From: Candidatus Omnitrophota bacterium
Lineage (GTDB): Bacteria > Omnitrophota > Gorgyraeia > Zapsychrales > Zapsychraceae
Length of the DNA: 64,000 bases
Assembly: GCA_021108075.1 (NCBI GenBank)
Contig: JAIORP010000090.1
Coordinates: 79,828-143,827 of the forward strand
Direction: 5' to 3'
The first letter of the stretch is position 1; each line of letters starts with the position of its first letter. A program made the position numbers and the translations under genes. Below are positions 5,213-58,255 of this stretch, piece by piece. The notes under the pieces were generated by a model. It searched no databases. It saw only the letters and a list, made by a program, of their open reading frames with translations, and was not told the DNA's origin.

Positions 5213-5283
5213 GGCGCGATAGCCAAGTGGTAAGGCCGTGGTCTGCAAAATCACTATCGCCGGTTCGATTCCGGCTCGCGCCT
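5213..5283 (+). tRNA. tRNA-Cys (GCA)
   Basis: Hand-folded cloverleaf with acceptor stem GGCGCGA/TCGCGCC, anticodon loop CTGCAAA and T-loop GGTTCGATTCC. Confidence 0.8.
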
Positions 5284-5338
5284 TTAATCGTACATTAATG
5301 GATGATTGAAGCGTGAGTGGATTATTACGATATGTTGT

Positions 5339-5421
5339 GGGCAAGTGGTGGAATGGCATACACGTTGGACTTAAAATCCAATGGCTGCAAGGCCGTGTGG
5401 GTTCGACTCCCACCTTGCCCA
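5339..5421 (+). tRNA. tRNA-Leu (TAA), long variable arm
   Basis: Acceptor stem GGGCAAG/CTTGCCC, anticodon loop CTTAAAA, long extra arm and T-loop GGTTCGACTCC. Confidence 0.8.
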
Positions 5422-5470
5422 TATGTTTTTGAGAAACAAAGAATTTTTTTTGGATATCTTTGTTTTACTT

Positions 5471-5547
5471 GGGCGGTTAGCTCAGTTGGTTAGAGTGCTA
5501 CGTTGACATCGTAGAGGTCACAAGTTCGAGTCTTGTACCGCCCACCA
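5471..5547 (+). tRNA. tRNA-Val (GAC), CCA encoded
   Basis: GGGCGGTTAGCTCAGTTGGTTAGAGC... with anticodon loop TTGACAT, T-loop GGTTCGAGTCC and ...ACCGCCCACCA at the 3' end. Confidence 0.85.
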
Positions 5548-12699: not shown

Positions 12700-12750
12700 T
12701 AGCCATGCATTATGGAAGCACCATAACATGGTGTCTTTTTTTTTCTAATT
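12700..12750 (+). promoter_or_regulatory. Leader hairpins with a terminator-like element (possible attenuator) upstream of the GNAT-E1 gene
   Basis: Hairpin CCATGCATTATGG followed by CACCAT(aac)ATGGTG and a T9 run, about 45 nt before the CDS start. It also encodes a 16-codon mini-ORF, MHYGSTITWCLFFSNF. Confidence 0.4.
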
Positions 12751-12796
12751 TTTAGTTGTGGTGAAATTAATGATTTTTAAAAAAATATAAAGAGGG

Positions 12797-14314
12797 ATGC
12801 GCATGTATCATTTTAAAGAAGCTCAGACAGAGCAAGAATATCAAAAAATATATGCATTACGTTATCAGGTGTATTGTCTTGAAAACGATTGGTTGCCTCC
12901 GGAAAATTATCCGAATAATCTAGAAAAAGATTTTTATGATGCGTATTCAAAACATTTTTATGCGGAAGATAAAAATGGCGAGGTTATAGGAACCATTCGT
13001 TTGATTTTACCCCATAAAATTCCGTTACACAGAACCTTGCCGATCGTTGATCATCCCAATGTCCAGCTCCATACCTTTAGCGTTCCCAATCAATGTGCTG
13101 AGATTTCCCGTTTAGTGGTCAACAAAAAAGTACGGAGAGGCGACATTGCCTTAGGATTATACCGAATCCTCTATCAATATGCGCGTGATAACGATATTCA
13201 GCACTGGTACATTTTGGTTGATGAGATTTTTTTGAAAATTTTACAAAAATTAGGGTTTCCGTTTAAACCTTTTGCCTGCCCGGGGGAATACATGGGTATC
13301 ACGATACCGGCGGAATCTCCTCTTGATGCGATTGAGCATCACCTGCAATTTAAGAATGCGCAATTTTTTGAATGGTTTCAGGATACGTCCACAGTTTTAA
13401 AAGAAACGCGGTTAATGTCTAAGTTTTTCAGGACCCAGGACAGATACGCTATTCCTAAAAAAGGTATTTATTCAAGAAATTGGGCTTTTATTTCTCGCTC
13501 GCTGCAAGACAAGCTGAAAGACACCCGTATGTTTATTGCCGGGTCAGGATTGGGAAGCGTTATCGCGCAAACAGCCGTTCGAACGGGCATCGGACGTTTT
13601 ATTGTCGCGGATGGTGATCGGGTGGAAGTCTCAAATTTAAACCGTCAGGCATTTAATAGCCGTGATCTTTCGCAGAACAAGGCTTGGGCGACTGCGAATA
13701 TGATCAAACGGATCCATCCGGATGTTGAAGTAGAGGTTATTGATGAATTTTTGACCCCAAAAACGTTAGCTGCGCCGATCAGCAAAGCAGATATTATTGT
13801 CAACACCATTGATTTTGACCACCCCGCTTTTTTGGATTGTAACCGCAAAGCAAGAAATCTTGGCAAAACGGTTTTTTTTCCTATAAACATTGGCTGGGGG
13901 GGGGCGTTGTTAATATTTACGCCGGAATCTCCGACCCTGGAGGAAGTGTTAGGCCTGACTCCGCTCAAACAATATTCTTTTGATCAAATAAAACAGAAAT
14001 TAATTCGAAAAATTATCAGTTCAGAAATTCCGGATTATCTTTTATCCCTGGTTGATATTTTTGAAAGTCCTGTAGCTGGTGAATGGTACAATGATCCACA
14101 AATGTCTGTTGGATGCTCTATTTCTTCATCCCTGGTTGTGACAGCAGCGGTTTCCATTGTCGCAGGACAATCGGTAAAAGTTGTCCCGGATCACACATAT
14201 ATTGATTTTCATGAATTAGTTCAGCAAAAATTTCAGGGCTTACATTCCATTGATGATCTGATTCAGAATTACGGATTTGTTGATCCAATACATAATGTTG
14301 GTGCAGGAATATAA
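12797..14314 (+). CDS. Two-domain fusion: N-terminal GNAT (FeeM/LuxI-like N-acyl amino acid synthase-type) and C-terminal ThiF/MoeB/E1-like adenylyltransferase
   Basis: The N-terminal 200 aa carry the YALRYQVYCLENDW motif typical of FeeM-type GNATs. The C-terminal 270 aa carry the E1 nucleotide-binding signature AGSGLGSVIAQTAVRTGIGRFIVADGDRVEVSNLNRQ. Confidence 0.7.
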   Translation: MRMYHFKEAQTEQEYQKIYALRYQVYCLENDWLPPENYPNNLEKDFYDAYSKHFYAEDKNGEVIGTIRLILPHKIPLHRTLPIVDHPNVQLHTFSVPNQCAEISRLVVNKKVRRGDIALGLYRILYQYARDNDIQHWYILVDEIFLKILQKLGFPFKPFACPGEYMGITIPAESPLDAIEHHLQFKNAQFFEWFQDTSTVLKETRLMSKFFRTQDRYAIPKKGIYSRNWAFISRSLQDKLKDTRMFIAGSGLGSVIAQTAVRTGIGRFIVADGDRVEVSNLNRQAFNSRDLSQNKAWATANMIKRIHPDVEVEVIDEFLTPKTLAAPISKADIIVNTIDFDHPAFLDCNRKARNLGKTVFFPINIGWGGALLIFTPESPTLEEVLGLTPLKQYSFDQIKQKLIRKIISSEIPDYLLSLVDIFESPVAGEWYNDPQMSVGCSISSSLVVTAAVSIVAGQSVKVVPDHTYIDFHELVQQKFQGLHSIDDLIQNYGFVDPIHNVGAGI

Positions 14315-14329
14315 TTTAATCAGACATGA

Positions 14330-14360
14330 AAAGCCTCCATTTTTATGGGGGCTTTTTTTG
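14330..14360 (+). terminator. Rho-independent terminator after the GNAT-E1 gene
   Basis: Hairpin AAGCCTCC(atttttat)GGGGGCTT followed by TTTTTTT. Confidence 0.55.
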
Positions 14361-14454
14361 TGGGCGTAGAACCGTCAGGCGTGAGCCGGTGTTTTTTTAC
14401 GGCAAGTCGGAGGACATCGGTTGTGCCAATGTTTATAACAACCGTTTGCAAGTT

Positions 14455-14597: not shown

Positions 14598-15326
14598 ATG
14601 AAAAAGAACACAGTGAAAATTACAAATTTTCAGCTAAAAACCGCGCAGATTATTTCAGATAAATATGAGGTTGTATCAAAATTGGGTTCAGGTTGGGAAG
14701 GAGAAGTTTATAAGATTAGGGAAATGCGAACAGGGATTGAGCGGGCCGCGAAGTTGTTTTTTCCGCAACGCAACATCAATCATAAGGCGTCTTGTTTTTA
14801 TGCGCGAAAATTACACAAATTACGCAAATGTCAAATATTGATTCAGTATCACACGGAAGAAACATTGTATTTTGATGGGCTTCCCATCACTATGTTGGTT
14901 TCTGAATATGTCGAAGGACAGCTCCTCTCTGATTTTGTGCGATCGTTTCCCGGGAAAAAATTGACGCCATTTCAGGCGTTGCATCTATTATATTCCCTTG
15001 TCAAAGGGATTGAAGACATTCACTTGCTGAATGAGTATCATGGCGATTTGCATTCCGACAATGTGATTGTTAACCGGTTTGGTTTGTATTTTGAATTAAA
15101 GCTTTTGGACATGTTTCATTGGTCTTCACCCAGCAAAGCTAATCGGGAAGATGATCTGTGCGAACTGATTCATATTTTTTATGATTCACTCGGGGGCGCA
15201 AAATATTATTCCAAGTTCCCACAAGAAATAAAAAAAATATGCTGTGGGTTAAAAAAGGGTTTGATTCTAAAAAAATTTAGGACAGTTTCCCAGTTGCGGG
15301 AATATTTAGAAACGATGAAATGGTAA
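14598..15326 (+). CDS. Small atypical protein kinase-like protein (RIO/Bud32/Kdo-kinase-like fold)
   Basis: Glycine loop LGSGWEGEVYK, lysine AAK, catalytic loop HGDLHSDNVIV and a downstream LLDMF. The protein is 242 aa. Confidence 0.55.
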   Translation: MKKNTVKITNFQLKTAQIISDKYEVVSKLGSGWEGEVYKIREMRTGIERAAKLFFPQRNINHKASCFYARKLHKLRKCQILIQYHTEETLYFDGLPITMLVSEYVEGQLLSDFVRSFPGKKLTPFQALHLLYSLVKGIEDIHLLNEYHGDLHSDNVIVNRFGLYFELKLLDMFHWSSPSKANREDDLCELIHIFYDSLGGAKYYSKFPQEIKKICCGLKKGLILKKFRTVSQLREYLETMKW

Positions 15327-15432
15327 TACCAATTCCATTAAATAATGACCCAAATTTTATCTCGCTTTTCTCGAATGCTTTTATGGGAACAGCGAGATGA
15401 AATCAGAAATATTATTTAATGGAATTGGTCGT
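15326..15432. repeat. MITE/REP-like repeat, copy d (subfamily B) with covarying TIRs
   Basis: Left TIR ATACCAATTCCATTAAATAATG and right TIR ATTATTTAATGGAATTGGT, which are exact reverse complements and carry the AATT variant. There is an inner inverted repeat ATCTCGCT...AGCGAGAT. Confidence 0.55.
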
Positions 15433-15495
15433 GTCAAATGGGTCTTTATTTTCTGTAATTGGTATAAATATCAGGGAAAGGGAAGGGCTCTGTGC

Positions 15496-16284
15496 ATGTC
15501 CAGGATGACATTTAAAAAATATGGAAATAGCCCTTCGGTCGTCCTTGTCCATGGAGGGCCGGGAGCGGCTGGGGAAATGACACCGGTTGCAGAAGAATTA
15601 TCAGCTAAGTTCGATATTCTTGAACCATGGCAAACAGCACGAACAATTGAGGGGCAAGTTGAAGAGCTGGCAAAAATTATAAAAAATGAAGCGGTGTGTC
15701 CGGTTATCTTAATGGGGTTTTCATGGGGAGCCTGGCTGATTTGTTTTGTCGCCGCACAGTATCCGGATATTGTTAAAAAATTGGTGCTTATTAGTAGCGC
15801 TCCTTTTGAGCAATCCTGTGCTGACGTGATTCAACAAAAACGATTCGAACGCATGAATGCTGCTGACCGTCAAAAAGTTCGTTTATGGACCCGAGAACTG
15901 CAAGACATCACGAATGATCATCGGGATGAGATCTTGTTGGAAATAGGTTTGAGTTATGAAAAAGCTGACACATTTATTCCGTTGCAGGATGTGAAAAATG
16001 ACATCGAATTTGATGCGAATATCTATCGGCAAATTTGGCCGCAAGCCACTCAATGGCGCAGGGAAGGAAGGCTTTTAGATTTACGGGAGAAGATTCAATG
16101 CCCTGTTGTTGCTCTGCATGGAGATTATGACCCCCATCCAGCACAAGGCGTTTTTGAGCCGCTCAAACATCTTGCCTCTTTTCGTTTTATCGTATTGTCT
16201 CAATGCGGACATAAACCCTGGGTCGAGAAATTAGTTCGGGAACGTTTCTATGATATTTTAAGGGATATTATTGATGAAGCGTAA
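15496..16284 (+). CDS. Alpha/beta-fold hydrolase
   Basis: VVLVHGGPG and nucleophile elbow GFSWGA. I moved the start to the ATG at 15496 because the track start at 15397 lies inside repeat copy d. An SD-like GGGAAGGG sits upstream. Confidence 0.65.
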   Translation: MSRMTFKKYGNSPSVVLVHGGPGAAGEMTPVAEELSAKFDILEPWQTARTIEGQVEELAKIIKNEAVCPVILMGFSWGAWLICFVAAQYPDIVKKLVLISSAPFEQSCADVIQQKRFERMNAADRQKVRLWTRELQDITNDHRDEILLEIGLSYEKADTFIPLQDVKNDIEFDANIYRQIWPQATQWRREGRLLDLREKIQCPVVALHGDYDPHPAQGVFEPLKHLASFRFIVLSQCGHKPWVEKLVRERFYDILRDIIDEA

Positions 16285-16524: not shown

Positions 16525-17055
16525 ATGAAAAAAAGTATTTTTTTCCATTGTTTATCCAGAATATTGTTTGTTATCCTTTTGTTGGTGATATTTCGTCCGG
16601 CTGTTTCGGAATCCGTTGTTATCGTAATAGATGAAATCGATTTGTATTTGGACGGATACAAATTGAAGGACAATTCGGTTATCATTGAGATTGGAGATGG
16701 GCATCGCAGTGTATGTGAATATGGAAAATGTAGTAAATCAATAACAAAAGATACCGCTGAAACCGTCTATTTTTATAAGACAGGTAATAAGCATATGTTA
16801 AATTGTTTTTCTTACGCTCGACCTGCTTGTGATCAATTTAAGACAATGGATGCTTATGAGCTGTATTTGAATGAGCATGTCGATAAAGCCATTTTTACAT
16901 GGAAAGTAACTTTTTCCCTTCCCAATGAAGAAGAAAAAGCAGTTGAACCTGATGCCTGGGTCAGCATCGGTCGGTGCTTTAACCTCGAGTTATCAGATGG
17001 TGTTTTAACGCAAAAAACTTGTGTCAAAAAGCAAGAAATGATGGACGCCAAATAA
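16525..17055 (+). CDS. Secreted Cys-containing hypothetical protein (signal peptide)
   Basis: N-terminal signal peptide. No recognisable domain. Confidence 0.45.
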   Translation: MKKSIFFHCLSRILFVILLLVIFRPAVSESVVIVIDEIDLYLDGYKLKDNSVIIEIGDGHRSVCEYGKCSKSITKDTAETVYFYKTGNKHMLNCFSYARPACDQFKTMDAYELYLNEHVDKAIFTWKVTFSLPNEEEKAVEPDAWVSIGRCFNLELSDGVLTQKTCVKKQEMMDAK

Positions 17056-17129
17056 ATTTTTTTAAGTAAGACGCTGTATTCTTTTAGCGGACGCCCTTCT
17101 GTTTGTCATCTTCTATAAGGTCAAGACGC

Positions 17130-17714
17130 ATGCCACAAATAAATCGAAAAGATATATGGACGCTGTGTTTCCTGTTCAGTCTTATCGTTTTTGTTGTGAT
17201 CCTCTACCTTCTGTTTAAGGGGCAACAAACCATCTACTATAGCCCCGTTTTTAATTCCCAGGGGAAATCGGTCGCCTATATCAAACGCATGGTGGATTAT
17301 CAGGTGGAAGGGGGCAGTCTGATCCCTTTTATGGGAGAACAAGTAACAATATCGGTAAAATCAGACCGCCTACAGTTGTGTCAAAAAGACTTGGAGAGCA
17401 ATAAGGAGACGGTTATTCATGATTGGATGATCGATTTGGACCAAAGGAACAAATTGGGGGGTGTCTGGGTTCGGCTTGATTGGCATGGCCCTGTCCTGAA
17501 GTATTATGTTCGATTGACAGACTATGGCCAGATTCATCTGGGCCAGGAAAAGAATGGACCGTCCGGATTGGAATGGATATTAACAAATACCCGGGAGCGG
17601 GAGTTGATCAAACATGGACCGATAGAGGTTGGAGTGGTGCAGGTTTTTTTGAATGCTGATCCTGAAAAAATACGCTTTCCTTATGTGAATAGGCTTATCA
17701 TCGAAAAAAGATAG
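17130..17714 (+). CDS. Membrane-anchored hypothetical protein
   Basis: Single N-terminal TM segment LCFLFSLIVFVVILYLLF. Start chosen at MPQINRK. Confidence 0.4.
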   Translation: MPQINRKDIWTLCFLFSLIVFVVILYLLFKGQQTIYYSPVFNSQGKSVAYIKRMVDYQVEGGSLIPFMGEQVTISVKSDRLQLCQKDLESNKETVIHDWMIDLDQRNKLGGVWVRLDWHGPVLKYYVRLTDYGQIHLGQEKNGPSGLEWILTNTRERELIKHGPIEVGVVQVFLNADPEKIRFPYVNRLIIEKR

Positions 17715-17795
17715 CATTTTTTGGAATTTTGTAGCATAATAGTAAAGATATATTTTTGTCCATATTCTAAATTTATGATACAGGGGGGGAGTAAA

Positions 17796-18254
17796 ATGAA
17801 AAAAATTTATATTTGTTTTCTTTTTTGTTGTTTTTTTATTCCGGGACTAATGATGGCGGTTCCACAACAAGCGTTTGCTGTGGATGAAGAAAACACGAGC
17901 CAAACGGTTCAATCGCAAAGTAATAATGGCAGTAGAAGGCAGCAAGCGATGGAAATTCGACGTATGCGGCAAGAAACTGCTGCGCGCGCGCGTGAAGTCT
18001 CCCAGCGCGTTAGAGATTCCGTCCGACGAACAAAAGAATCCATTCGTGCCATTAAAGAACGGTTGAATAATACGGGCGCTGATTATTCGATGTCTAATAA
18101 GGAACGCATGCGCGCGATTCGCGAAACGATTGAACGCAATAAAATTCAACAGAAGCTGAATAGGCAGATGCAGAAAGATCGTATGCGCATGATTAGGGAT
18201 CAGACCGAGTCATTGCAGCAAAAGCTTAGAGATAACGCAAACAGAAATAAATAA
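17796..18254 (+). CDS. Secreted Arg/Gln/Met-rich coiled-coil protein (paralog 1)
   Basis: Signal peptide MKKIYICFLFCCFFIPGLMMA followed by a repetitive R/Q/E/M-rich helical region ending ...QQKLRDNANRNK. Confidence 0.5.
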   Translation: MKKIYICFLFCCFFIPGLMMAVPQQAFAVDEENTSQTVQSQSNNGSRRQQAMEIRRMRQETAARAREVSQRVRDSVRRTKESIRAIKERLNNTGADYSMSNKERMRAIRETIERNKIQQKLNRQMQKDRMRMIRDQTESLQQKLRDNANRNK

Positions 18255-18320
18255 TCTCGACGATACTTTAATGGATATATTATCCATGTTGAGGTGTTTT
18301 TGTCTTTTTTGTGGGAGGAT

Positions 18321-18767
18321 ATGATGACCGCGATCAGAATTGTTTTTACCATTATAATTTTTTTAGGATGCTTTGTTTTTGTTTGTCTGGTTGAGGCCGG
18401 TAGTTTAGATTCTTTTCATATGGATTTGGTTATTGAGCGAACGAAGGATTCGATCCGCATCCAAAAGGATCTTGCGATCAGTCGCAAGAAGGATAATGAA
18501 ATTGTTCGGGGCCAGGATATCAAGCAATCCGTAAAAGACACCATGACGCGGAAGAAAGAAGCGATAAGGACGATGCAATCCCACATGTCCAATGGAGCAA
18601 AGCAGTTTAATGACATCGCGCGTACGCGAATGATGATGATGAAAGAGACAATGAGACAAACTGCTGTTCAACAGGATTTAAATCGTCGTCAACAACAAGA
18701 CCGTCTGCGCCAAATTAAAGAACAGACAACGGCTCTCAAGCAACGCCTTAAAGATAATTCAAGATAA
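18321..18767 (+). CDS. Secreted Arg/Gln/Met-rich coiled-coil protein (paralog 2)
   Basis: Same architecture as the ORF at 17796 and a similar C-terminus (...LKQRLKDNSR). Confidence 0.5.
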   Translation: MMTAIRIVFTIIIFLGCFVFVCLVEAGSLDSFHMDLVIERTKDSIRIQKDLAISRKKDNEIVRGQDIKQSVKDTMTRKKEAIRTMQSHMSNGAKQFNDIARTRMMMMKETMRQTAVQQDLNRRQQQDRLRQIKEQTTALKQRLKDNSR

Positions 18768-22164: not shown

Positions 22165-22396
22165 GTTGACCCAATTTTATTGATTTATTAATTTTATATT
22201 AGCTGCTAAAATAATATTCCCTGCTGTGCGCGTTAGGGTGCATACATATAGAACCAATACTCTATAAAGGGCGCTAAACTTCTCTGGTATCCGTGGATAG
22301 CTGAGAGAGGTGCCCACGTGGTGACAACGGTTCACCATATTGTGTATCCGACGGCATAAGCGGGGAATTTTTTTATTTAACCATAATATTAAACTG

Positions 22397-27759: not shown

Positions 27760-29094
27760 ATGGTAAAAGTACGTTTTGCTCCCAGTCCTACCGGTTTTTT
27801 GCATGTCGGCGGTGCTCGTACAGCTTTGTTCAACTGGATGTATGCTAAGGCTCAAAAAGGAAAGTTTCTGTTAAGAATTGAAGATACCGACCAACAGAGA
27901 TCTAAACAGGAATATGTCGATGAAATTCTAGACAGTATGACCTGGTTGGGGTTGGATTGGGATGAGTTGATTTATCAGAGTCAACGTTTTGATATCTACA
28001 AGGAGCACGCTTTAAAGCTTGTCTCTGAGGGGAAGGCTTATCAAGACGGTGATGCGATTTTATTGAAAATGCCAAAGCAGGAGGTTAAATTTTGGGATCT
28101 TATCCGAGGAGAAATTGTTTTTGATACCGCAAGCTTTGTGGTTTGGGATGAAGAATCCGGGAGCAAAACAAATGAAACAGGTGAGGCGCAATTAAAAGAC
28201 GAGGTTTTATTAAAATCCGACGGGTCCCCGGCATACAACTTTTGTTGTGTGGTCGACGACGTTTTAATGGAAATAACGCATGTTGTCCGTGGTGAAGACC
28301 ATATTTCAAACACACCCCGCCAGTTGATTGTCTATCAATCTTTAGGTTTTAAGCCGCCGAAGTTTGCCCATTTGCCGCTGATTACGGGTGCTGATGGAAA
28401 ACGGTTGTCCAAGAGAACGGGTGCCGTCGCTGTCAGCGCGTACCGGAAAATGGGATTTTTGCCGGAAGCGACGATGAATTTTTTAATGTTATTGGGCTGG
28501 TCGCCAGGGAATAATCAGGAAATGATGAGCATGAAAAATGCAGTTCAAAAGTTTTCTGTAAAGAAAATTAACAAAACAGCCGCTGTTTTTGATATGGATA
28601 AATTTAGATGGCTGAATGGGCAATACATTAAACAGGCCGACCCGCAATATATAACATCTGCCCTGATCCCGCTGCTAAAAGAACATCAGCTTGTTACGGA
28701 TGATGTGGACCCGGGCTTTATTAAAGAAGCTGTCACGCTATATCAAAGTCGTTTACCGACGCTCATGGATTTTTTGGATCGAGCGCGCTATTTGTTTTTA
28801 GAAAAGGTTGAGATTGAACAGGAAGCCAAAGAAACAATTTTAGCAAAAGATCGGACAATGGAATTCCAACTTCTTGCCGACCGTTTGCACGCATTGGATG
28901 CCTATGATAAAGATTCCGCTGAAAAATCCTTTCGTGCCGTGGTTGATGAATTAGGCCTGAAGGCGTCTGACCTGGTTCATCCTGTTCGCGTTGCTTTAAC
29001 CGGCAGTGCGGTTGGGCCGGGGTTATTTGAAACGATGGCTTTGCTCGGAAAGAGTAAAACCGTTTACCGCCTGAAAAATTTTACGAACGAATAA
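27760..29094 (+). CDS. gltX: Glutamate--tRNA ligase
   Basis: Signature RFAPSPTGFLHVGGARTALFNW and KMSKR-like LSKR. Confidence 0.9.
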   Translation: MVKVRFAPSPTGFLHVGGARTALFNWMYAKAQKGKFLLRIEDTDQQRSKQEYVDEILDSMTWLGLDWDELIYQSQRFDIYKEHALKLVSEGKAYQDGDAILLKMPKQEVKFWDLIRGEIVFDTASFVVWDEESGSKTNETGEAQLKDEVLLKSDGSPAYNFCCVVDDVLMEITHVVRGEDHISNTPRQLIVYQSLGFKPPKFAHLPLITGADGKRLSKRTGAVAVSAYRKMGFLPEATMNFLMLLGWSPGNNQEMMSMKNAVQKFSVKKINKTAAVFDMDKFRWLNGQYIKQADPQYITSALIPLLKEHQLVTDDVDPGFIKEAVTLYQSRLPTLMDFLDRARYLFLEKVEIEQEAKETILAKDRTMEFQLLADRLHALDAYDKDSAEKSFRAVVDELGLKASDLVHPVRVALTGSAVGPGLFETMALLGKSKTVYRLKNFTNE

Positions 29095-29126: not shown

Positions 29127-29198
29127 TGCCCTGTGGTGTAATTGGCAACACATGAGATTCTGGTTCTTAGATTCCAGGTTCGAGTCCTGGCGGGGCAG
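29127..29198 (+). tRNA. tRNA-Gln (CTG)
   Basis: Hand-folded with U1-A72 acceptor stem TGCCCTG/CGGGGCA, anticodon loop TTCTGGT and T-arm CCAGGTTCGAGTCCTGG. Confidence 0.75.
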
Positions 29199-30557: not shown

Positions 30558-32261
30558 ATGGATCATGCACAGGAGAATCGTTCTTCAAAGGAAAAAAAGT
30601 CAGTAGATTTTATTCGTACCATCGTTGCGGAAGATATCAAAAAACAAAAGAATAATGGCGAAGTTGTGACGCGTTTCCCTCCTGAGCCAAATGGATATTT
30701 GCATATTGGACATGCGAAATCAATCTGTCTTAATTTTGGCATCGCGCAGGAATTCAATGGAACATGTCATTTGCGGTTTGATGATACGAATCCAACCAAA
30801 GAAGAAGTCCAATATGTTGAGTCGATCAAGGAAGATGTGCTCTGGCTGGGTTTTAACTGGGCGGACAAGGAATTTTACGCCTCGGATTATTTTGAACGGC
30901 TTTGTCAGTTTGCCGTCCAATTGATAAAAATCGGCAAGGCCTATGTGGATAGCTCAACCCCTGAAGAGATTAGAGCCAGCCGGGGCACACTAACCGAGCC
31001 CGGGCAAAACAGCCCTTACCGCGACCGCCCCATTAAGGAAAATTTAGAGCTTTTCGAACAAATGCGCAAAGGAGACATGGACGAAGGCCAATGTGTGTTA
31101 AGGGCCAAAATTGACCTGGCGTCTTCAAATATCAATATGCGTGATCCGGTGATCTATCGGATTTTAAAGGCCCATCACCACCGTACCAAGGATCAATGGT
31201 GTATTTATCCTATGTATGATTTCACGCATGGATTGTCGGATTCCATTGAAGGGATCACGCATTCGCTTTGCACTTTGGAATTTGAAAATCATCGTCCTCT
31301 TTATGATTGGTTTTTAGAGGCGTTGCAAGTCCCGTGTCATCCTCAGCAAATCGAATTTGCCCGCCTGAACTTAACATATACGGTTATGAGCAAACGGAAG
31401 TTGTTAGAACTTGTTAGGCACGGGCATGTTTCTGGATGGGATGATCCGCGTATGCCGACGATCTCAGGTTTGAGGCGCAGAGGTTATCCCCCGGAAGCCA
31501 TTCGTGAGTTTTGTGACCGCATTGGTATCGCTAAAGTGGAAAATTTGATTGATATCTCCTTGTTGGAGTTTTGCGTGCGCGAGGATTTAAACAAACATGC
31601 GAATCGGGTGATGGTGGTTTTAGATCCTTTGAAGCTGGTCATCACCAATTATCCTGTGAATCAAACAGAGGACCTTGAAGCCATCAATAACCCTGAAGAT
31701 GAAAGCGCAGGAACACGGTTGATCCCGTTTGGGCGGGAGTTATATATCGAACGCAGTGATTTTATGGAAGACCCGCCTAAGAAATTTTTTCGTCTTGCAC
31801 CAGGGAAAGAGGTTCGTTTGCGGTATGCGTACTTCATCACATGTGAGAAAGTGATCAAAAATGATCAAGGGGGTATCCTGGAAGTTCATTGCCGGTACGA
31901 CCCGGCCTCTAAGGGCGGTCAATCTCCGGATGGTCGTAAAGTTAAAGGGACATTGCATTGGGTAGCGGGTCAGTCTGCTGTGACCTGCGAGGTCCGGCTT
32001 TATGACCGGCTTTTTTTTAAAGAAAATCCGGACAGTCCAAAGGATGAAACAGATTATAAAGCATATTTAAACCCGGATTCATTAAAGGTCGAAAAAGCGG
32101 CATTTGCTGAGCCCTGCTTAGCGTCAGCAAAGGTCGGTGACCGCTTGCAATTTGAAAGACTAGGTTATTTTTGTGTTGATCCAGACAGTAATAAAGACAA
32201 ACGGGTTGTCAATCGCACTGTTGCTTTAAAGGATTCTTGGGCAAAAATGAAGAAAATATAA
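30558..32261 (+). CDS. glnS: Glutamine--tRNA ligase
   Basis: [42 protein letters not shown] is nearly identical to the GlnRS HIGH region. VMSKR. Confidence 0.9.
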
Positions 32262-50170: not shown

Positions 50171-50671
50171 ATGTTAAGAAAATTTTTAGTGCTTTTTCTC
50201 ATTGTTCTTTTGGCTGGATGCGGTTCTCCCAAGAAGACAAAGTATCAGGGGGTTGAAGCCGATAATAATTATGTTGAAAAGGGAATGAAGTTTTTATCCC
50301 AGGGAGATGTCTTAAAAGCCATTAAAAATTTTGACATGGCGATAAAGAACGATCCTAATAATATAAAGAACTATTTAACCTTAGCCCAGGTTTATATCCG
50401 TTTAAAAAACTATCCGCGTGCCATTGACACCCTTTCTGCGGCAACGCGTGTGGATCCGATTAACGGTGATGTCTACTATTTGTTGTCGGTCAGCCAACGA
50501 CTCAATGGTGATTTAAAAGGAGCGATTGATTCTGCCAAAAAGAGTGTTGTTTTGTTTCAGCGCTCAGGCGATCAGGACAATTTTAGCCGTTCCGCGGGAG
50601 TTTTGAAGAAATTGATGCAGGAAGCGCAACAATTCCAATCCCGGGCGGATGAGGCACCAACACAACCTTAA
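50171..50671 (+). CDS. TPR-repeat lipoprotein
   Basis: Lipobox LLAGC followed by TPR-like repeats. Confidence 0.55.
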   Translation: MLRKFLVLFLIVLLAGCGSPKKTKYQGVEADNNYVEKGMKFLSQGDVLKAIKNFDMAIKNDPNNIKNYLTLAQVYIRLKNYPRAIDTLSAATRVDPINGDVYYLLSVSQRLNGDLKGAIDSAKKSVVLFQRSGDQDNFSRSAGVLKKLMQEAQQFQSRADEAPTQP

Positions 50672-52266
50672 TGTGTTTGAAAATTAAGACCGCGTTGTTA
50701 TCTGTCTTTGGGTTAGCTTTTTGCTCGCTATTCTTTTTTTTGTCTTTTCCTAACGCGCTTTCTCACCAGGGCCATTCATTTTTTCTCTGCTTTTTTTTGT
50801 TTCCATTCTTTTATTTCGTCCGGGATTGTTATGGTTTTAATCGGATACTGCATGGCCTTTTTTTAGGCGTATTTATGTATGGGCTGCTTGTTTTGTGGCT
50901 CTTCGGTGTTCATCCGTTCGGATATTTTTTATTTGTCATCTTTTTATCTCTGCAGACAATCATATTTTGTCTGTTGTATATTGATCCTCGTAAGTGCTTA
51001 ACGAAAAACCATTCTCTTTTAGATGCTGAGGGCAATGCTTTTTATTCCAGGGTGCTGGTTATGTCCGGTTGTTTTTATCTTCCGAGCCTCTGGGTCATGA
51101 GCGAATATTTACGCACATTATTCCTGCGAGGATTTTCTTGGAGCATTGCTCATGGGCTGAGTCATATCCCCGGCTTTTTAAGGATATGCCGTTACACGGG
51201 TTCTTATGGCATGTCTTTTGTCTTGATACTGGTTAATGTTTTGATCTTTTTTATGCTTCAAAGAAAACGTTCAATAACATATTATGTCTATATGCTTCTT
51301 ATTCCCCTTTCTGTTTTTGGCCTATTTCATCTGGCAGAAAATGATATCGTCCTGATAAATGAAAATATTTCTGTCGCACAAGAACAAGATATTTTAATGG
51401 TTTGTTCCATTCAGCCTCACTTAGATGCGCGGGATAAAGCGCATCTAATGCATTTAGACCGCATGATGGATGATAACATCGCTTTATCAAAACGATGCAC
51501 GCAAGATCGTCCGGTGGATTTAATTGTCTGGCCGGAGACAGCGATCCCCGACGATGTTATCCGAAACCGGACTGTAAACGTTCGGGTTAAAAACCTCGCG
51601 CGGGCTTTAGACACGCATTTGCTCATCGGCTCTGCTCTTGAGATCCAGAAGAATGACTACAATAGTGTTGTTTTTTTTGACCGCGAGGGGAAGGATAGAG
51701 GTTTTTATCATAAAATAAAATTGATTCCATTCGCGGAATATCAACCACCTTTCTTTGATCAAGTTATTTTTAAGGCGATGATCTTACCGAAAAGTTATGA
51801 TTTTCAGGCCGGGGAGCGGGTTTGTTCCTTCCCGTTAAAGACGGGGACCAATAAACGGGTTTTTCGTTTTGGAAGCATTATTTGCTCAGAAGAATTTTAT
51901 CCCGGATTATTACGTCGCGTCAAAAATGAAAATAATGATTGTGTTATTTCTGTGCTGAATGATCAATGGTTCCCGCCCCCTGCGAAGCGATTGCATTGGC
52001 AGGCAGCTGTGATGCGTGCGGTTGAATTTGGTTTTCCTGTCTTGCGTTCGGCTAATGATGGCATAACGGATTGGATTGATTATCAAGGCCGTTCCGATAA
52101 TATCAGGAACACAGCATTGGCGCAGGGCAAAGGCATTCACATTTTTGCTGTAGAGAAAAAAAAGCAATCGACCTTTTACCAAAAATATGGTGATGTTTTT
52201 GCTCAGATGTGTTGTGTTTTTGTTATAATGTTTAAGTTCTTAGATGCCGTATTTATTAAAGCGTAG
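50671..52266 (+). CDS. lnt: Apolipoprotein N-acyltransferase
   Basis: Multi-TM N-terminal domain plus a C-terminal CN-hydrolase domain (WPETAIP, ...SIICSEEFYP). Confidence 0.7.
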   Translation: MCLKIKTALLSVFGLAFCSLFFFLSFPNALSHQGHSFFLCFFLFPFFYFVRDCYGFNRILHGLFLGVFMYGLLVLWLFGVHPFGYFLFVIFLSLQTIIFCLLYIDPRKCLTKNHSLLDAEGNAFYSRVLVMSGCFYLPSLWVMSEYLRTLFLRGFSWSIAHGLSHIPGFLRICRYTGSYGMSFVLILVNVLIFFMLQRKRSITYYVYMLLIPLSVFGLFHLAENDIVLINENISVAQEQDILMVCSIQPHLDARDKAHLMHLDRMMDDNIALSKRCTQDRPVDLIVWPETAIPDDVIRNRTVNVRVKNLARALDTHLLIGSALEIQKNDYNSVVFFDREGKDRGFYHKIKLIPFAEYQPPFFDQVIFKAMILPKSYDFQAGERVCSFPLKTGTNKRVFRFGSIICSEEFYPGLLRRVKNENNDCVISVLNDQWFPPPAKRLHWQAAVMRAVEFGFPVLRSANDGITDWIDYQGRSDNIRNTALAQGKGIHIFAVEKKKQSTFYQKYGDVFAQMCCVFVIMFKFLDAVFIKA

Positions 52267-52931: not shown

Positions 52932-54287
52932 ATGAAATGGATTCCTTTGGTGATGTGTTTTGTTTTGGTTTCAGGAGGTATCTGTGAGGCTAAAGTTGAT
53001 CTCGTGAGTCTTCCGAGTCGCGATAGTGTGCAGTTAACGATTTATAATTCCGCAGATTTAACACTGGCAAAAGAAAGCCGGTCCCTTACCCTGAAAGAAG
53101 GTTTCAATGATCTTCAATTCTCCTGGGCGAATACCTTGATTGATCCAACGAGCTTAGAGCTTGTTCCATTAACAAATGCTGATCGAATTGACGTTCAAGC
53201 ACTAACCTATCCTCCGAGAGTTAAAAATTTGGGATTATGGAACATTGACAGTGGCCTGAGCGGACAAATTCCTGTTGAAATTAGCTATTTGACGAGTGGT
53301 TTAAGTTGGCGTGCTTTTTATCTTGGAACATTAACACCGGATGAAAAGGAAATGAGGTTAAAGGGATATGTCCGCGTTCTTAATAATAGTGGCGAAGATT
53401 ATGAAAATGCTCAAGTCCGTCTGATTGTCGGCAAGGTTCACATCATTGATCAGATAGCCCAATTGGCTCAAAGGCAATATCCGTATGAACGTCCGGGAAT
53501 TTATCCTGCGGCACAACCGGAGGTGCACTCAAAACGAAGTCGCCAGGATGTGCGCGTGATGAAGTCCGTCATGATGGGAGAGGGTATAGCTTTTGGCTCT
53601 GTCGCCCCGATGGAGACCAAGGAGATTATTAAAGAAGGTTTGAGCGAATATTTTTTATATACGATTGAGGGCCGGGAAACCATTCTAAATGGATGGTCAA
53701 AGAGATTACCGAGCTTTGATGTCGCGAGCGTGCCAGTGGTTAATCTGTATAAATATGAAGAGGAGCGATACGGTTATCAGGTGATCCGTTTTTTAAGTTT
53801 TAAAAATGATGAGGATCACCTGTTGGGGGAAACACCGATTCCCGGAGGTTTATTAAAAGTATTTCGAAATGTTGATGCGGAGAATCATTTAAGCTATGAA
53901 GGACAAAGTGAATTCAAGTATATCCCGATTGACGAGGATGTTGAGCTGAATTTAGGTGCGGTGCAGAATATCGTTGTTGAACCCAAGCTGATGAATCTTA
54001 AAACGGAAAATTTTATGTTTGACCGTCATGGGAATATTAATGGATGGGATGAGGTCCGAACGTACAAAATGGAAGTGAAAAATACGCGTCAGGTTCCGGT
54101 TGAGGTTGAGATTAAACGGAATTTTAATGCTCTCAAATGGGATATCCACAATGAAGGTGCTGAGGTGAAATATGAAAAAATTGACGCCAATACAGTGAAA
54201 TACAAATTAGCGTTACAATCAAAAGAAAATAAAACGTTTCAATATACTCTACGGACATTTCATGGCCGTAGAGGAGACCACAAATAA
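52932..54287 (+). CDS. Secreted ~450-aa protein, paralog P1 of a 5-gene tandem family (possibly the DUF4139/DUF4140 'MuiA-like' family, unverified)
   Basis: Signal peptide, conserved N-terminal domain KVDLVSLPSRDSVQLTIYNSADLTL..., SYLTSGLSWRAFYLGTL, a variable central segment and a conserved C-terminus ending FHGRRGDHK. Confidence 0.7.
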   Translation: MKWIPLVMCFVLVSGGICEAKVDLVSLPSRDSVQLTIYNSADLTLAKESRSLTLKEGFNDLQFSWANTLIDPTSLELVPLTNADRIDVQALTYPPRVKNLGLWNIDSGLSGQIPVEISYLTSGLSWRAFYLGTLTPDEKEMRLKGYVRVLNNSGEDYENAQVRLIVGKVHIIDQIAQLAQRQYPYERPGIYPAAQPEVHSKRSRQDVRVMKSVMMGEGIAFGSVAPMETKEIIKEGLSEYFLYTIEGRETILNGWSKRLPSFDVASVPVVNLYKYEEERYGYQVIRFLSFKNDEDHLLGETPIPGGLLKVFRNVDAENHLSYEGQSEFKYIPIDEDVELNLGAVQNIVVEPKLMNLKTENFMFDRHGNINGWDEVRTYKMEVKNTRQVPVEVEIKRNFNALKWDIHNEGAEVKYEKIDANTVKYKLALQSKENKTFQYTLRTFHGRRGDHK

Positions 54288-54320
54288 TGGCAATCATCGG
54301 ACCTTAATTAGGAGGCGATA

Positions 54321-55460
54321 ATGAAAAAAAATATGTATTTAAAAAGTGTCATCATGTTAAGTATGTTTTGTTTCTTGAGTTTGTCTGTGGCTGAGGCCCG
54401 GATCAAACTTGTGGCCCTTCCCAAGAGGGCGGACACCATCATCCGGTTGGACAATCCCCAATTTACATTAATAGAAGAAGAACGTGTGCTGACTTTACAA
54501 CAGGGATTAAACAAAGTTGATTTCTCCTGGAACGGTGTCAGTATTGATCCTGATTCGATCCGCATTGATATCCTGTCCCATTCCGACCAGGTCACACTTT
54601 TAAACGTGAGCTATCCGCCAAATGAGAATGCGCTTGTTTGGGAAATTAGCAGTGCCGGAGCGCGGGAAGAAAAGATCCGCGTCAGCTATTTGCTTTCCAA
54701 TATTGACCGATTGATCACATATAAATCCGTTGCTGATAAAGCGGAGACACAGGTCAACTTTAAGAGTCATCTCATTTTGAGGAATTTTTCAGGGGAAGAT
54801 TTTGCTAATGCGAAAGTGTTGCTTGATTATGGTGAATCCTTTGAGGAAGGCATCCGACACGAAGAAACAAAACAACTGCTGTTTCTTAAGGCTGGAACGG
54901 TTCCGATCGAAAAGGTATGGCAATGGGATTCCAAAAAACAAATTTGGGACCCGGAAGAAGTTGATCAAAATGTCGGGATTCCGGTCCATTACCGCATAAC
55001 AAACACAACGGACTCGAACTTAGGTCAGAACGCGTTATGGAATGGTAAAATGCGTGTTTTTCAATTGGATGGTCATGGCAGCACGATTCTGTTAGGCGAA
55101 GATGCTGTTGATTTAACTCCGGTCGGTGAAGATATGGAAGTTTATATCGGTGATAGCCGGGATTTGGTGGTGACGCAGCGTAAGATGGTCGACAAGCAGA
55201 CAAATATTCGGCGTAATACGAGTGGCCGCGTTGTTTTATATGATAACGAAGAGCAGGTAACGGCTAAAATTGAGAACTTCAAAGATACAAACGCGAAATT
55301 AAAAATGGTCCAACATATCCCTGGAGAATGGGATATGCATAGCTGCAATTTCGAATATAAGAAGGAGAACGCAAATACGATTGAATTTGAAATTGATGTG
55401 CCTGCGCAGGGTAAGGCGGAGCTTGTTATGCATTACTTTAGACGAAATATTCGCAATTAA
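54321..55460 (+). CDS. Secreted protein, paralog P2 (divergent, shorter, lacks variable insert)
   Basis: Same N-terminal pattern (RIKLVALPKRADTIIRL...VSYLLSNIDR...) and 379 aa. Confidence 0.6.
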   Translation: MKKNMYLKSVIMLSMFCFLSLSVAEARIKLVALPKRADTIIRLDNPQFTLIEEERVLTLQQGLNKVDFSWNGVSIDPDSIRIDILSHSDQVTLLNVSYPPNENALVWEISSAGAREEKIRVSYLLSNIDRLITYKSVADKAETQVNFKSHLILRNFSGEDFANAKVLLDYGESFEEGIRHEETKQLLFLKAGTVPIEKVWQWDSKKQIWDPEEVDQNVGIPVHYRITNTTDSNLGQNALWNGKMRVFQLDGHGSTILLGEDAVDLTPVGEDMEVYIGDSRDLVVTQRKMVDKQTNIRRNTSGRVVLYDNEEQVTAKIENFKDTNAKLKMVQHIPGEWDMHSCNFEYKKENANTIEFEIDVPAQGKAELVMHYFRRNIRN

Positions 55461-55473
55461 AGGAGGCCGGGCA

Positions 55474-56850
55474 ATGAAAGTGAAGCTTTTCTTTCTTGTT
55501 TTTCTGTTGGTGCCCGGTGTTTCCTTGGCCAAAGTTGATCTTGTGACGCTTCCTCAACGGGATCATGTTCAGTTGACGATTTACAATTCAGCGGACTTAA
55601 CACTTATCAAGGAGAGCCGTTCTTTAACCCTCAAAGAAGGATTTAACGATCTGCAGTTTTCTTGGGTCAACACATTAATCGATCCGACCAGTTTGGAAAT
55701 GCTGCCATTAGCCAACGCGGATCAAATTGATGTCCAATCCTTAACATACCCTCCCCTTTTAAAAAACGTGGGATTATGGCATATACGCAGCTCAGTGAGC
55801 GGTCAAGTCCCTTTTGAAATCAGTTACTTAACGAGTGGTCTCAGCTGGAGGGCGTTCTATTTAGGAACATTAGACCCTGATGAGCAGGAAATGCGTTTGC
55901 AGGGTTTTGTGCGCGTGCAGAACAACAGTGGGGAAGACTATGAAAAGGCTCAAGTTCGATTGATTGTCGGAACAGTGCATGTCATTGATCAGATTTCTTT
56001 TTTAGCTAACCGACAGCACCCCTACGGCTCGCCCGGTATTATTAATTTTGAGCGAGAGCATTGGGGGGGAGGCGAAGATTATGATGCCGATGCGTTGGAT
56101 ATGAAAGATGCGATCGATGAAACCTTTTATGCCCTGGCCGACGCTGAATCATTTAGAGAAGAAGGGGAAATGCGTACGCCGAAGAAAATCATCAAGGAAG
56201 GATTGAGCGAATATTTTTTATACACGATTGAAGGCCGCGAAACAGTTCCAAACGGATGGGCCAAACGCATGCCGAGTTTTGATGTTGAGAAAATACCTGT
56301 TGTCAACCTTTATAAATATGAAGAGGAACGTTATGGCTCGCAGGTCGTTCGTTTTTTGAGTTTTAAAAATGATGAAGACCATCAATTGGGAGAGACGCCT
56401 ATCCCGGGTGGCATGTTAAAAGTTTTTCGTCAAGTCGACCAGGAAAAACACTTGAGCTATGAGGGGCAAAGTGGCTTTAAATATATTCCTGTCGATGAAG
56501 AGGTCGAGTTGAATATGGGTGGCGTTCAGAATGTCATCGTCGAACCAACCCTGATGGATTATCAATCGGCAAACTATATGTTCGACCGGTATGGAAATAT
56601 TATCGGTTGGGATGAAATACGGGAATATAAGATTAAACTGAAAAACACCCGCCCGATTCCCGTCAAAGTTGAAATCAAAAGAAACATCCATAATTCGAAA
56701 TGGGCCATCCAAAATCAGGGCGATGTCGGCACTTATGAAAAAATTGATGCGGACACGGTTCAATACACGATTCATTTGACGGAACGGGAGAATAAAGAAA
56801 TTGTTTACGCCCTCACGACGTTTCATGGCCGTCGAGCGGATTATCAATGA
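55474..56850 (+). CDS. Secreted protein, paralog P3
   Basis: Start at the ATG after SD AGGAGG, MKVKLFFLVFLLVPGVSLAKVDLVTLPQRDHVQL... C-terminus TTFHGRRADYQ. Confidence 0.7.
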   Translation: MKVKLFFLVFLLVPGVSLAKVDLVTLPQRDHVQLTIYNSADLTLIKESRSLTLKEGFNDLQFSWVNTLIDPTSLEMLPLANADQIDVQSLTYPPLLKNVGLWHIRSSVSGQVPFEISYLTSGLSWRAFYLGTLDPDEQEMRLQGFVRVQNNSGEDYEKAQVRLIVGTVHVIDQISFLANRQHPYGSPGIINFEREHWGGGEDYDADALDMKDAIDETFYALADAESFREEGEMRTPKKIIKEGLSEYFLYTIEGRETVPNGWAKRMPSFDVEKIPVVNLYKYEEERYGSQVVRFLSFKNDEDHQLGETPIPGGMLKVFRQVDQEKHLSYEGQSGFKYIPVDEEVELNMGGVQNVIVEPTLMDYQSANYMFDRYGNIIGWDEIREYKIKLKNTRPIPVKVEIKRNIHNSKWAIQNQGDVGTYEKIDADTVQYTIHLTERENKEIVYALTTFHGRRADYQ

Positions 56851-56866
56851 GGATAAAGGATTTTTA

Positions 56867-58243: not shown

Positions 58244-58255
58244 GACCAGGGGATT

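Follow-up and report, generated by a model that had tools for sequence, protein, structure and literature searches.

A predicted bifunctional protein of Candidatus Omnitrophota joins an N-acyl amino acid synthase domain and a ThiF-type adenylation domain in one polypeptide

A single gene located in a stretch of 64,000 nucleotides from a Candidatus Omnitrophota bacterium (contig JAIORP010000090.1; this whole 64-kb stretch is hereafter called the window) encodes a protein that combines an N-terminal domain related to LuxI and FeeM with a C-terminal ThiF/E1-type domain. Judged from its sequence, this protein is probably a self-contained bifunctional synthase, whose product would be an N-acyl amino acid in a cyclised or activated form. 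Our confidence in any one specific product is much lower, and this product is possibly a signal. The original prediction had described the gene as one open reading frame (ORF) with two domains, and the present analysis agrees with this description, since the ORF (505 codons, + strand) contains both motifs then quoted, ALRYQVY and GSGLGSVIAQTAVRTGIGRFIVADGDRVEVSNLNRQ. Only its start was refined, as explained below. Searches of Pfam and NCBIfam run on both halves likewise bore out the two domain assignments then made, FeeM/LuxI-like GNAT for the first half and ThiF/E1 for the second one.

The N-terminal half is, on the basis of sequence matches, assigned as a LuxI/FeeM-fold N-acyl amino acid synthase (NAS). 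Pfam models match its residues 11-172 (Acetyltransf_5, E 2e-13, and FeeM, E 4e-11, both within aa 18-172), together with a sub-threshold match of the LuxI-type acyl-homoserine lactone (AHL) synthase model Autoind_synth (PF00765; 21.5 bits, under the Pfam cut-off of 24). The NCBIfam model TIGR03694, which describes the PEP-CTERM/exosortase-associated acyltransferases, a family of NAS, matches the protein in two stretches with 149.8 bits (cut-off 111.95). When a sequence profile of the domain was compared to the PDB, the best matches were the AHL synthases BjaI and LasI (E 3e-11). Furthermore, the aligned fused homologues show little or no variation at residues R22, E43, D45, D48, R68, E102, S104 and R105. 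We take these residues to be the invariants of the LuxI family and the hallmark of the LuxI/NAS fold.

The C-terminal half was assigned to the ThiF family by Pfam (residues 225-463, E 4e-32) and displays the SRNWAFI entry motif as well as the GWGG and DPQ motifs. Its alignment with ThiF and MoeB from Escherichia coli indicates that all the nucleotide-binding residues common to these two proteins are retained (R227, G249/G251/G253, D272, D274, SNLNRQ at 279-284 including R283/Q284, K295 and D339), and revealed neither a CxxC zinc motif nor a crossover-loop cysteine. Residue D339 (context DIIVNTI-D-FD) aligns with the aspartate of the DCTDN motif of E. coli ThiF and MoeB and with D217 of TrzS from Mycobacterium tuberculosis (context DVVVEEC-D217-SLD, derived by translating published mutagenesis primers; PMC12856293), whose replacement by alanine abolishes cyclisation (PMC12856293). 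The domain also includes a clade-specific helical insert of ~40 residues (about aa 385-425), and the scores obtained with all the NCBIfam ThiF/MoeB equivalog models (55-89 bits) are far below their cut-offs (159-376). In the AlphaFold2 model of the entire protein (mean predicted local distance difference test, pLDDT, of 89.6), both domains are well folded and a disordered linker lies between them (pLDDT of 51-52 for residues 211-230, and <50 at 214-220).

The original prediction had envisaged that the ORF could be an assembly artefact joining two genes or be frameshifted in relatives. An assembly artefact can be dismissed, since three contigs of different origin carry the identical protein and six further homologues (471-497 aa, 37-56% identity) carry both halves in one unbroken frame, with conserved columns throughout. 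Moreover, the GC content of the gene matches that of the flanking genes and the composition is uniform along the stretch. A profile derived from the seven fused sequences was searched against 1.84 billion representative proteins and retrieved three close family representatives and two divergent NAS-ThiF fusions (P0108, 515 aa; P0109, 442 aa). This amounts to about five clusters among 1.84 billion representatives, and the architecture is therefore genuine but rare. Its carriers are phylogenetically scattered over several phyla and include Omnitrophica, a Cytophagia metagenome-assembled genome (MAG) and a contig carrying ligA and a gene encoding a ZipA domain. The comparison of homologues that had been suggested thus established that the fusion is conserved, but did not reveal any common context, the fused homologues being found in unrelated neighbourhoods devoid of a conserved partner gene.

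According to the original prediction, the GNAT half makes an N-acyl amino acid whose carboxylate is adenylated by the E1-like half. The same logic has been shown experimentally for the oxazolone synthetase OxzA/OxzB of Pseudoalteromonas rubra (de Rond et al., bioRxiv 10.1101/2020.06.11.147165) and for two systems of M. tuberculosis, TyzA/TyzC/TyzB (PMC10404671) and TrzA/TrzS (PMC12856293). In these systems, an N-acyltransferase produces an N-acylated aromatic amino acid, which a ThiF-like enzyme cyclises to an oxazolone at the expense of ATP, and a flavin oxidase of the nitroreductase superfamily (FDO), which is fused to ThiF in OxzB and TrzS and encoded beside the ThiF gene as TyzC, carries out a desaturation (bioRxiv 10.1101/2020.06.11.147165; PMC10404671; PMC12856293). 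The adenylate is neither the end product nor an intermediate of conjugation, since an intramolecular attack collapses it to a 5(4H)-oxazolone (same three references). For these known systems, the expectation of an activated N-acyl amino acid or peptide conjugate holds for the adenylation but not for the conjugation. It should also be emphasized that the saturated cyclised intermediate builds up when O2 or FDO is limiting (PMC10404671, PMC12856293) and is therefore a real chemical species. The closest structural homologues of TyzA are FeeM and BjaI (PMC10404671, PMC12856293). What bacterial N-acyl oxazolones do for their producers, M. tuberculosis among them, has yet to be settled (PMC12856293).

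By homology with these enzymes, a three-step mechanism can be proposed for the fusion protein. First, the NAS half would move a fatty acyl group from acyl-CoA or from acyl-acyl carrier protein (acyl-ACP) onto the alpha-amino group of an amino acid, as suggested by its fold, by the residues that it conserves and by the reactions of TyzA, TrzA, OxzA and FeeM. Second, the ThiF half would use Mg-ATP to adenylate the free alpha-carboxylate of this N-acyl amino acid, as expected from its homology to TyzB, TrzS, OxzB and the clade of AclA (see below); its adenylation site is intact, and this step fits the known substrates of the ThiF family, which are N-acylated amino-acid carboxylates. Third, the acyl-adenylate would be resolved intramolecularly, because the protein has no catalytic cysteine, zinc site or partner carrier protein. 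By default, the attack of the amide oxygen would generate a saturated 2-alkyl-5(4H)-oxazolone (azlactone), and an amino acid with a side-chain nucleophile would lead to a lactone or lactam instead. Since no FDO accompanies the gene, the product would be expected to remain un-desaturated. Such a saturated ring would be hydrolytically labile and could act as a reactive acyl donor or as a diffusible signal of short life. Through the flexible tether, both active sites would be held at a 1:1 stoichiometry and the intermediate would be passed on locally.

The search for an oxidase partner covered the 64 kb of the window, in which Pfam scans of essentially every ORF of at least 100 aa on the + strand gave no match to the nitroreductase family PF00881 (although Pfam detects TyzC-type FDOs poorly) and a rhizobial nitroreductase-like protein used as a query did not retrieve any homologue. 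No FDO was found either at the other fused loci with their flanks (L001, L002, L005), at the split operon L012 or at the AclA loci. This result bears on a first alternative, a classical pathway to unsaturated oxazolones of the tyrazolone/tryptazolone type, in which the fused protein would correspond to OxzA joined to the ThiF half of OxzB and the FDO would be encoded elsewhere in the genome, of which 64 kb are covered here. Every characterised association of NAS and ThiF does include an FDO (PMC10404671, PMC12856293). Furthermore, operons containing an FDO exist among more distant ThiF relatives carried by rhizobial plasmids (L034, L035), where a distant relative of the domain X described below precedes genes encoding ThiF, a hypothetical protein, a GNAT and a nitroreductase-like protein. 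However, the known FDOs are fused or adjacent to the ThiF gene, a position in which none was found at any of the loci listed above, and Omnitrophica is a largely anaerobic lineage, which would hardly benefit from an FDO that depends on O2. We therefore consider this alternative as unlikely.

Two of the loci carry a gene of the membrane fatty-acid-desaturase family, one near the fused homologue P0007, together with a B12-radical S-adenosylmethionine (SAM) gene (L005:3166-5811), and the other directly adjoining the stand-alone ThiF P0110 (L008:764-1717). At these two loci only, the desaturase-family gene might encode an alternative tailoring enzyme replacing the FDO.

The examination of the relatives of the ThiF half revealed other associations with acyltransferases. 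The ThiF domains most similar to that of the fusion all start with a motif of the 'SRNW.FI' type. In a Leptospiraceae MAG, an NAS-like gene is followed after 17 nt by a ThiF gene, i.e., in the same order as in the fusion (split operon L012), and a Spirochaetia MAG carries a single ORF encoding a fusion in the reverse order, ThiF-NAS (P0129 = L027). In some other ThiF relatives, the fusion partner is a cryptic domain of the LuxI fold; a LuxI-fold domain missed by sequence models is present in about 50 unannotated proteins (~670 aa), most of them from Chloroflexota. Fusions between ThiF-type domains and acyltransferases of the LuxI/NAS fold have thus arisen at least three times, which constitutes strong Rosetta-stone evidence that both activities work on the same metabolite. 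In addition, Vibrio coralliilyticus, Shewanella and Oligoflexus encode a domain called X (~250-390 aa) in a gene that lies upstream of the ThiF gene and is translationally coupled to it, the stop codon of the former overlapping the start codon of the latter. In P0162 and P0168, domain X is fused to the N-terminus of ThiF. It has no Pfam match, and no similarity to either NAS or domain Y could be detected. A tblastn search of plasmids retrieved relatives from rhizobia, Vibrio and Riemerella, TyzB, TrzS and OxzB not being among them, and a scan of genome contigs yielded close relatives only.

The same clade includes AclA from Tenacibaculum discolor (PDB 9egb/9egc/9egd, released 2025-08-13), whose family has >1300 members; every named member among the 120 listed belongs to Flavobacteriia. 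At two AclA loci (L032:309-2614 and L033:7001-9331), the ThiF gene is followed by a convergent gene encoding a LuxR-type regulator (~252 aa) and then by a gene encoding a 200-216-aa protein, which is matched by the NAS profile (E 1e-16 to 1e-18) and by Pfam FeeM with an E of only 0.01. The AclA homologue and the convergent regulator are retained in a locus of a Riemerella plasmid (L036:4992-6499), where the search with the NAS-like profile gave no match. This layout resembles a LuxI/LuxR-style pair accompanied by an extra ATP-dependent enzyme. Other regulators are encoded close to members of the clade: sensor histidine kinases (PAS + HisKA_2 or HisKA_3) directly 3' of stand-alone ThiF genes in three unrelated MAGs (L008, L010, L012), a response-regulator receiver domain fused to ThiF in P0153 and a LytTR regulator adjoining the fused homologue P0007.

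These associations are relevant to a particular case of the bifunctional synthase, that of an autoinducer-type synthase whose LuxI-like half would N-acylate homoserine or another amino acid and whose ThiF half would close a lactone, lactam or oxazolone, providing a SAM-independent and ATP-driven route to AHL-like compounds. The LuxI residues retained by the N-terminal domain, the AHL synthases as best PDB matches, the regulators convergent to AclA in three flavobacterial loci and the kinase, receiver and LytTR genes mentioned above are all consistent with it. However, no regulator adjoins the fusion gene in the window or in L001/L002, the Autoind_synth score does not reach its cut-off and the neighbourhood associations concern a handful of loci, without statistics. 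This case thus seems rather improbable as the specific function of the protein.

The modules made of NAS and ThiF, whether fused in either order, split or including a cryptic LuxI-fold domain, are found in Omnitrophota, Bacteroidota, Spirochaetota, Chloroflexota and Proteobacteria. A broader and tentative proposal, which we regard as unlikely, is that those devoid of oxidase could form a widespread and unrecognised class of ATP-driven, SAM-independent synthases, whose products would be small signals derived from N-acyl amino acids by cyclisation (saturated oxazolones, or lactones/lactams resembling AHL) and read out by the products of adjacent LuxR-type, LytTR or histidine-kinase genes, the fusion gene being their minimal single-polypeptide form. 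Small-molecule ThiF-like enzymes are barely explored. A natural NAS-ThiF polypeptide devoid of oxidase argues, as a Rosetta stone, that N-acylation and the activation of the carboxylate with ATP constitute one functional unit, independent of desaturation. It also predicts a different class of products (saturated azlactones or other ring closures), reactive acyl donors that would be of interest for biocatalysis. Furthermore, since LuxR-type regulators and sensor kinases are recurrently linked to its relatives, the hypothesis of a signal molecule becomes directly testable with one small gene.

Another part of the original prediction, the analogy with MccB and with the activation of ubiquitin, i.e., a peptide or protein substrate, found no support. 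Under this alternative, an E1/MccB-like enzyme would act on the C-terminus of a peptide or protein and the GNAT half would acylate the same macromolecule, in a way reminiscent of ubiquitin-like (Ubl) systems or of the RiPPs (peptides made on the ribosome and then modified post-translationally). However, no RiPP recognition element (RRE), no zinc site and no catalytic cysteine were found in the protein, no gene encoding a precursor or a Ubl protein was detected, and none of the small ORFs around the fusion gene, which were examined for a GG-ended Ubl or a precursor peptide, was convincing. This alternative is very unlikely.

Several results weigh against a self-contained bifunctional synthase. 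The predicted template modelling score (pTM) of the AlphaFold2 model is 0.63, leaving the mutual orientation of the NAS and ThiF domains uncertain. The model of the Rv1355c family (NF005901) scores 55 bits on the ThiF half for a cut-off of 476, i.e., no better than the MoeB models. Since the search for an FDO covers 64 kb and depends partly on Pfam, such an enzyme could lie elsewhere in the genome. Finally, stand-alone NAS homologues (~46-48% identity) are encoded without any ThiF gene nearby (P0128, L007), which indicates that the ThiF step would be an optional add-on in this family. These stand-alone homologues also bear on the reversed order of reactions, in which adenylation by the ThiF half, of either a fatty acid or an amino acid, would come first and provide the GNAT half with its acyl donor or acceptor. 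The existence of both NAS-ThiF and ThiF-NAS fusions, showing that the domain order is not fixed, is compatible with it. However, the NAS half can be expected from its stand-alone homologues to be independent of ThiF for its donor, and the characterised enzymes of the LuxI/FeeM fold take acyl-ACP or acyl-CoA as donor. Moreover, all known substrates of the ThiF family are N-acylated alpha-amino-acid carboxylates: C-termini of proteins or peptides, t6A, N-acyl-Tyr and N-acyl-Trp (PMC12596934; PMC12856293). The reversed order is thus extremely unlikely, and a synthase that acylates first and then activates remains our preferred interpretation.

The features of the gene, of the encoded protein and of the coupled domain X genes are listed in Table 1. 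Among the two possible start codons, ATG 12803 is likelier than ATG 12797, since the Shine-Dalgarno-like sequence AAAGAGGG is too near the latter. The resulting protein of 503 aa has the same length as the identical database protein P0001 (which comes from a Candidatus Omnitrophica MAG and carries the NCBI annotation 'ThiF family adenylyltransferase'), and the homologues likewise start with 'MY'. The terminator-like hairpin located 3' of trkH would set the fusion gene apart from the upstream operon and, since terminators are thus predicted on both sides, the gene looks monocistronic. It belongs to a housekeeping stretch (thrS-infC-rplT-trkA-trkH-[fusion gene]-...-pheS-pheT). A recent horizontal acquisition of the gene was considered and not retained, the composition profile showing no recently acquired island. 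An Rfam scan near the gene detected neither a riboswitch nor any other RNA.

Table 1. Coordinates of the fusion gene, its domains and signals in the window, and of the domain X genes found at other loci
Feature	Coordinates	Strand	Evidence or remark
Terminator-like hairpin + T-run	12714..12745	+	3' of trkH; dG -9.3 kcal/mol, z -2.8
Shine-Dalgarno-like sequence	12788..12795	+	7 nt upstream of ATG 12803; read from sequence
Complete NAS-ThiF fusion gene	12797..14314	+	ORF of 505 codons; probable start ATG 12803, giving 503 aa
Putative LuxI/FeeM-fold NAS domain, aa 1-205	12797..13411	+	The eight hallmark residues given in the text are retained
Flexible inter-domain linker, aa 206-223	13412..13465	+	pLDDT drop; alignment gaps; length varies among homologues
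ThiF/E1-type adenylation (putative cyclase) domain, aa 224-470	13466..14206	+	Pfam, alignment, motifs
C-terminal tail, aa 471-505	14207..14311	+	Poor conservation, low model confidence
Strong intrinsic terminator	14324..14361	+	Just past the stop codon of the fusion gene; dG -21.6 kcal/mol, z -6.2; 0/200 shuffles fold as well
Domain X upstream of ThiF	L029:4826-5992, L022:5129-5995; also L023-L026, L028		Coupled genes

The interval from rplT to pheS is filled by trkAH, the fusion gene and six genes located past its terminator. The first of them (14598-15326) encodes a short protein-kinase-like protein (242 aa, Pkinase E 1e-11) and is followed after 70 nt by an alpha/beta-hydrolase gene (15397-16284, 295 aa); neither is kept beside the homologues of the fusion gene. 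Four successive small ORFs (176, 203, 177 and 157 aa; 16525-18767) come next, whose products are hydrophobic in places close to the N-terminus and gave no significant match in Pfam; the last two are paralogues and resemble each other in their C-termini, which are rich in Arg/Gln (RQMQKDRMRMIRDQTESLQQKLRDN and RRQQQDRLRQIKEQTTALKQRLKDN). The kinase-like gene, the hydrolase gene and these four small secreted-protein genes were rejected as partners of the pathway, because the strong terminator intervenes and they are kept at no homologue locus.

Several other observations were made in the window. All its ORFs assigned by Pfam are carried by the + strand, an unusually complete co-orientation (~55 genes over 64 kb), and the GC skew is positive over the profiled 5-24 kb. 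A 6S RNA (54.1 bits) is located directly after pheT (22215-22370), three clustered tRNAs lie ahead of thrS (5213-5544) and one tRNA (29127-29198) follows the first of two genes encoding class-I aminoacyl-tRNA synthetases of the Glu/Gln type, which are 1.5 kb apart (27760-29094 and 30558-32261). This first synthetase is short (444 aa) and is matched in two stretches by the model of the catalytic domain. Further downstream, an apolipoprotein N-acyltransferase-like gene (50671-52266) precedes a run of four DUF4139 genes on the + strand (~450-490 aa; 52932-59611), with a 379-aa ORF devoid of Pfam match between the first and the second.

Among the known systems, OxzA/OxzB is similar to the fusion in that it pairs an acyltransferase making an N-acyl amino acid with a ThiF-like enzyme that cyclises a small molecule in an ATP-dependent way, one component being in each case a gene fusion. 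However, OxzB combines ThiF with the nitroreductase oxidase and its acyltransferase is separate, whereas here the acyltransferase is fused to ThiF and the oxidase was not found. The likeness to TyzACB and TrzAS lies in the TyzA/TrzA acyltransferases, in the ThiF-type proteins TyzB/TrzS and in the essential D217 of TrzS, the counterpart of D339. By contrast, no counterpart was found here of TyzC or of the C-terminal half of TrzS, the FDO that is obligatory for tyrazolone/tryptazolone, and the host phylum is different. The N-terminal half has the predicted fold and the conserved acidic and arginine residues of TIGR03694, FeeM and LuxI proteins, but all of these are single-domain proteins. Those of the TIGR03694 type have ~280-300 aa and are associated with an exosortase system, whereas the domain of the fusion has ~205 aa and is devoid of the internal insertion found in P0089 and P0093, which are of this type; Pfam scans detected no exosortase gene among the ORFs of the window.

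The ThiF half has in common with E. coli ThiF, MoeB and TcdA the Rossmann-type adenylation fold and the nucleotide-binding residues, and TcdA cyclises the carboxylate of an N-carbamoyl amino acid to an oxazolone-type ring (PMC12596934). In contrast to E. coli ThiF and MoeB, it lacks their zinc site and crossover-loop cysteine, and no ThiS/MoaD partner was found. The ThiF-like enzymes of RiPP pathways (MccB, PaaA, GrcB, IndF) begin with an RRE or peptide-binding domain and are encoded next to a precursor peptide (PMC12596934), whereas the N-terminus of the fusion is a GNAT and the fused loci have no conserved small ORF. AclA shares with the ThiF half the fold and the motifs of the clade (SRN entry motif, GWGG, helical insert, PQxxVG, no zinc or cysteine site), but it is a stand-alone protein of ~250 aa, ~27% identical, and its NAS-like partner is encoded by a separate, divergent gene located beyond the LuxR-type regulator.

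According to a review from 2025, no ThiF-like enzyme other than OxzB is known to its authors to act on a small molecule, and this review names neither NAS-ThiF fusions nor AclA (PMC12596934). In the literature searched, we found no description of a covalent NAS-ThiF fusion nor of such a pairing without flavin oxidase. The original prediction that the domain combination was undescribed therefore holds, within this literature, for the oxidase-free fusion in one polypeptide, but not for the pairing itself, which has been characterised as a two-enzyme pathway since 2020/21. Overall, what appears to be new here is the single-polypeptide NAS-ThiF form, its independence from an oxidase and its place in a broad clade of NAS and ThiF modules that is related to AclA and devoid of FDO.

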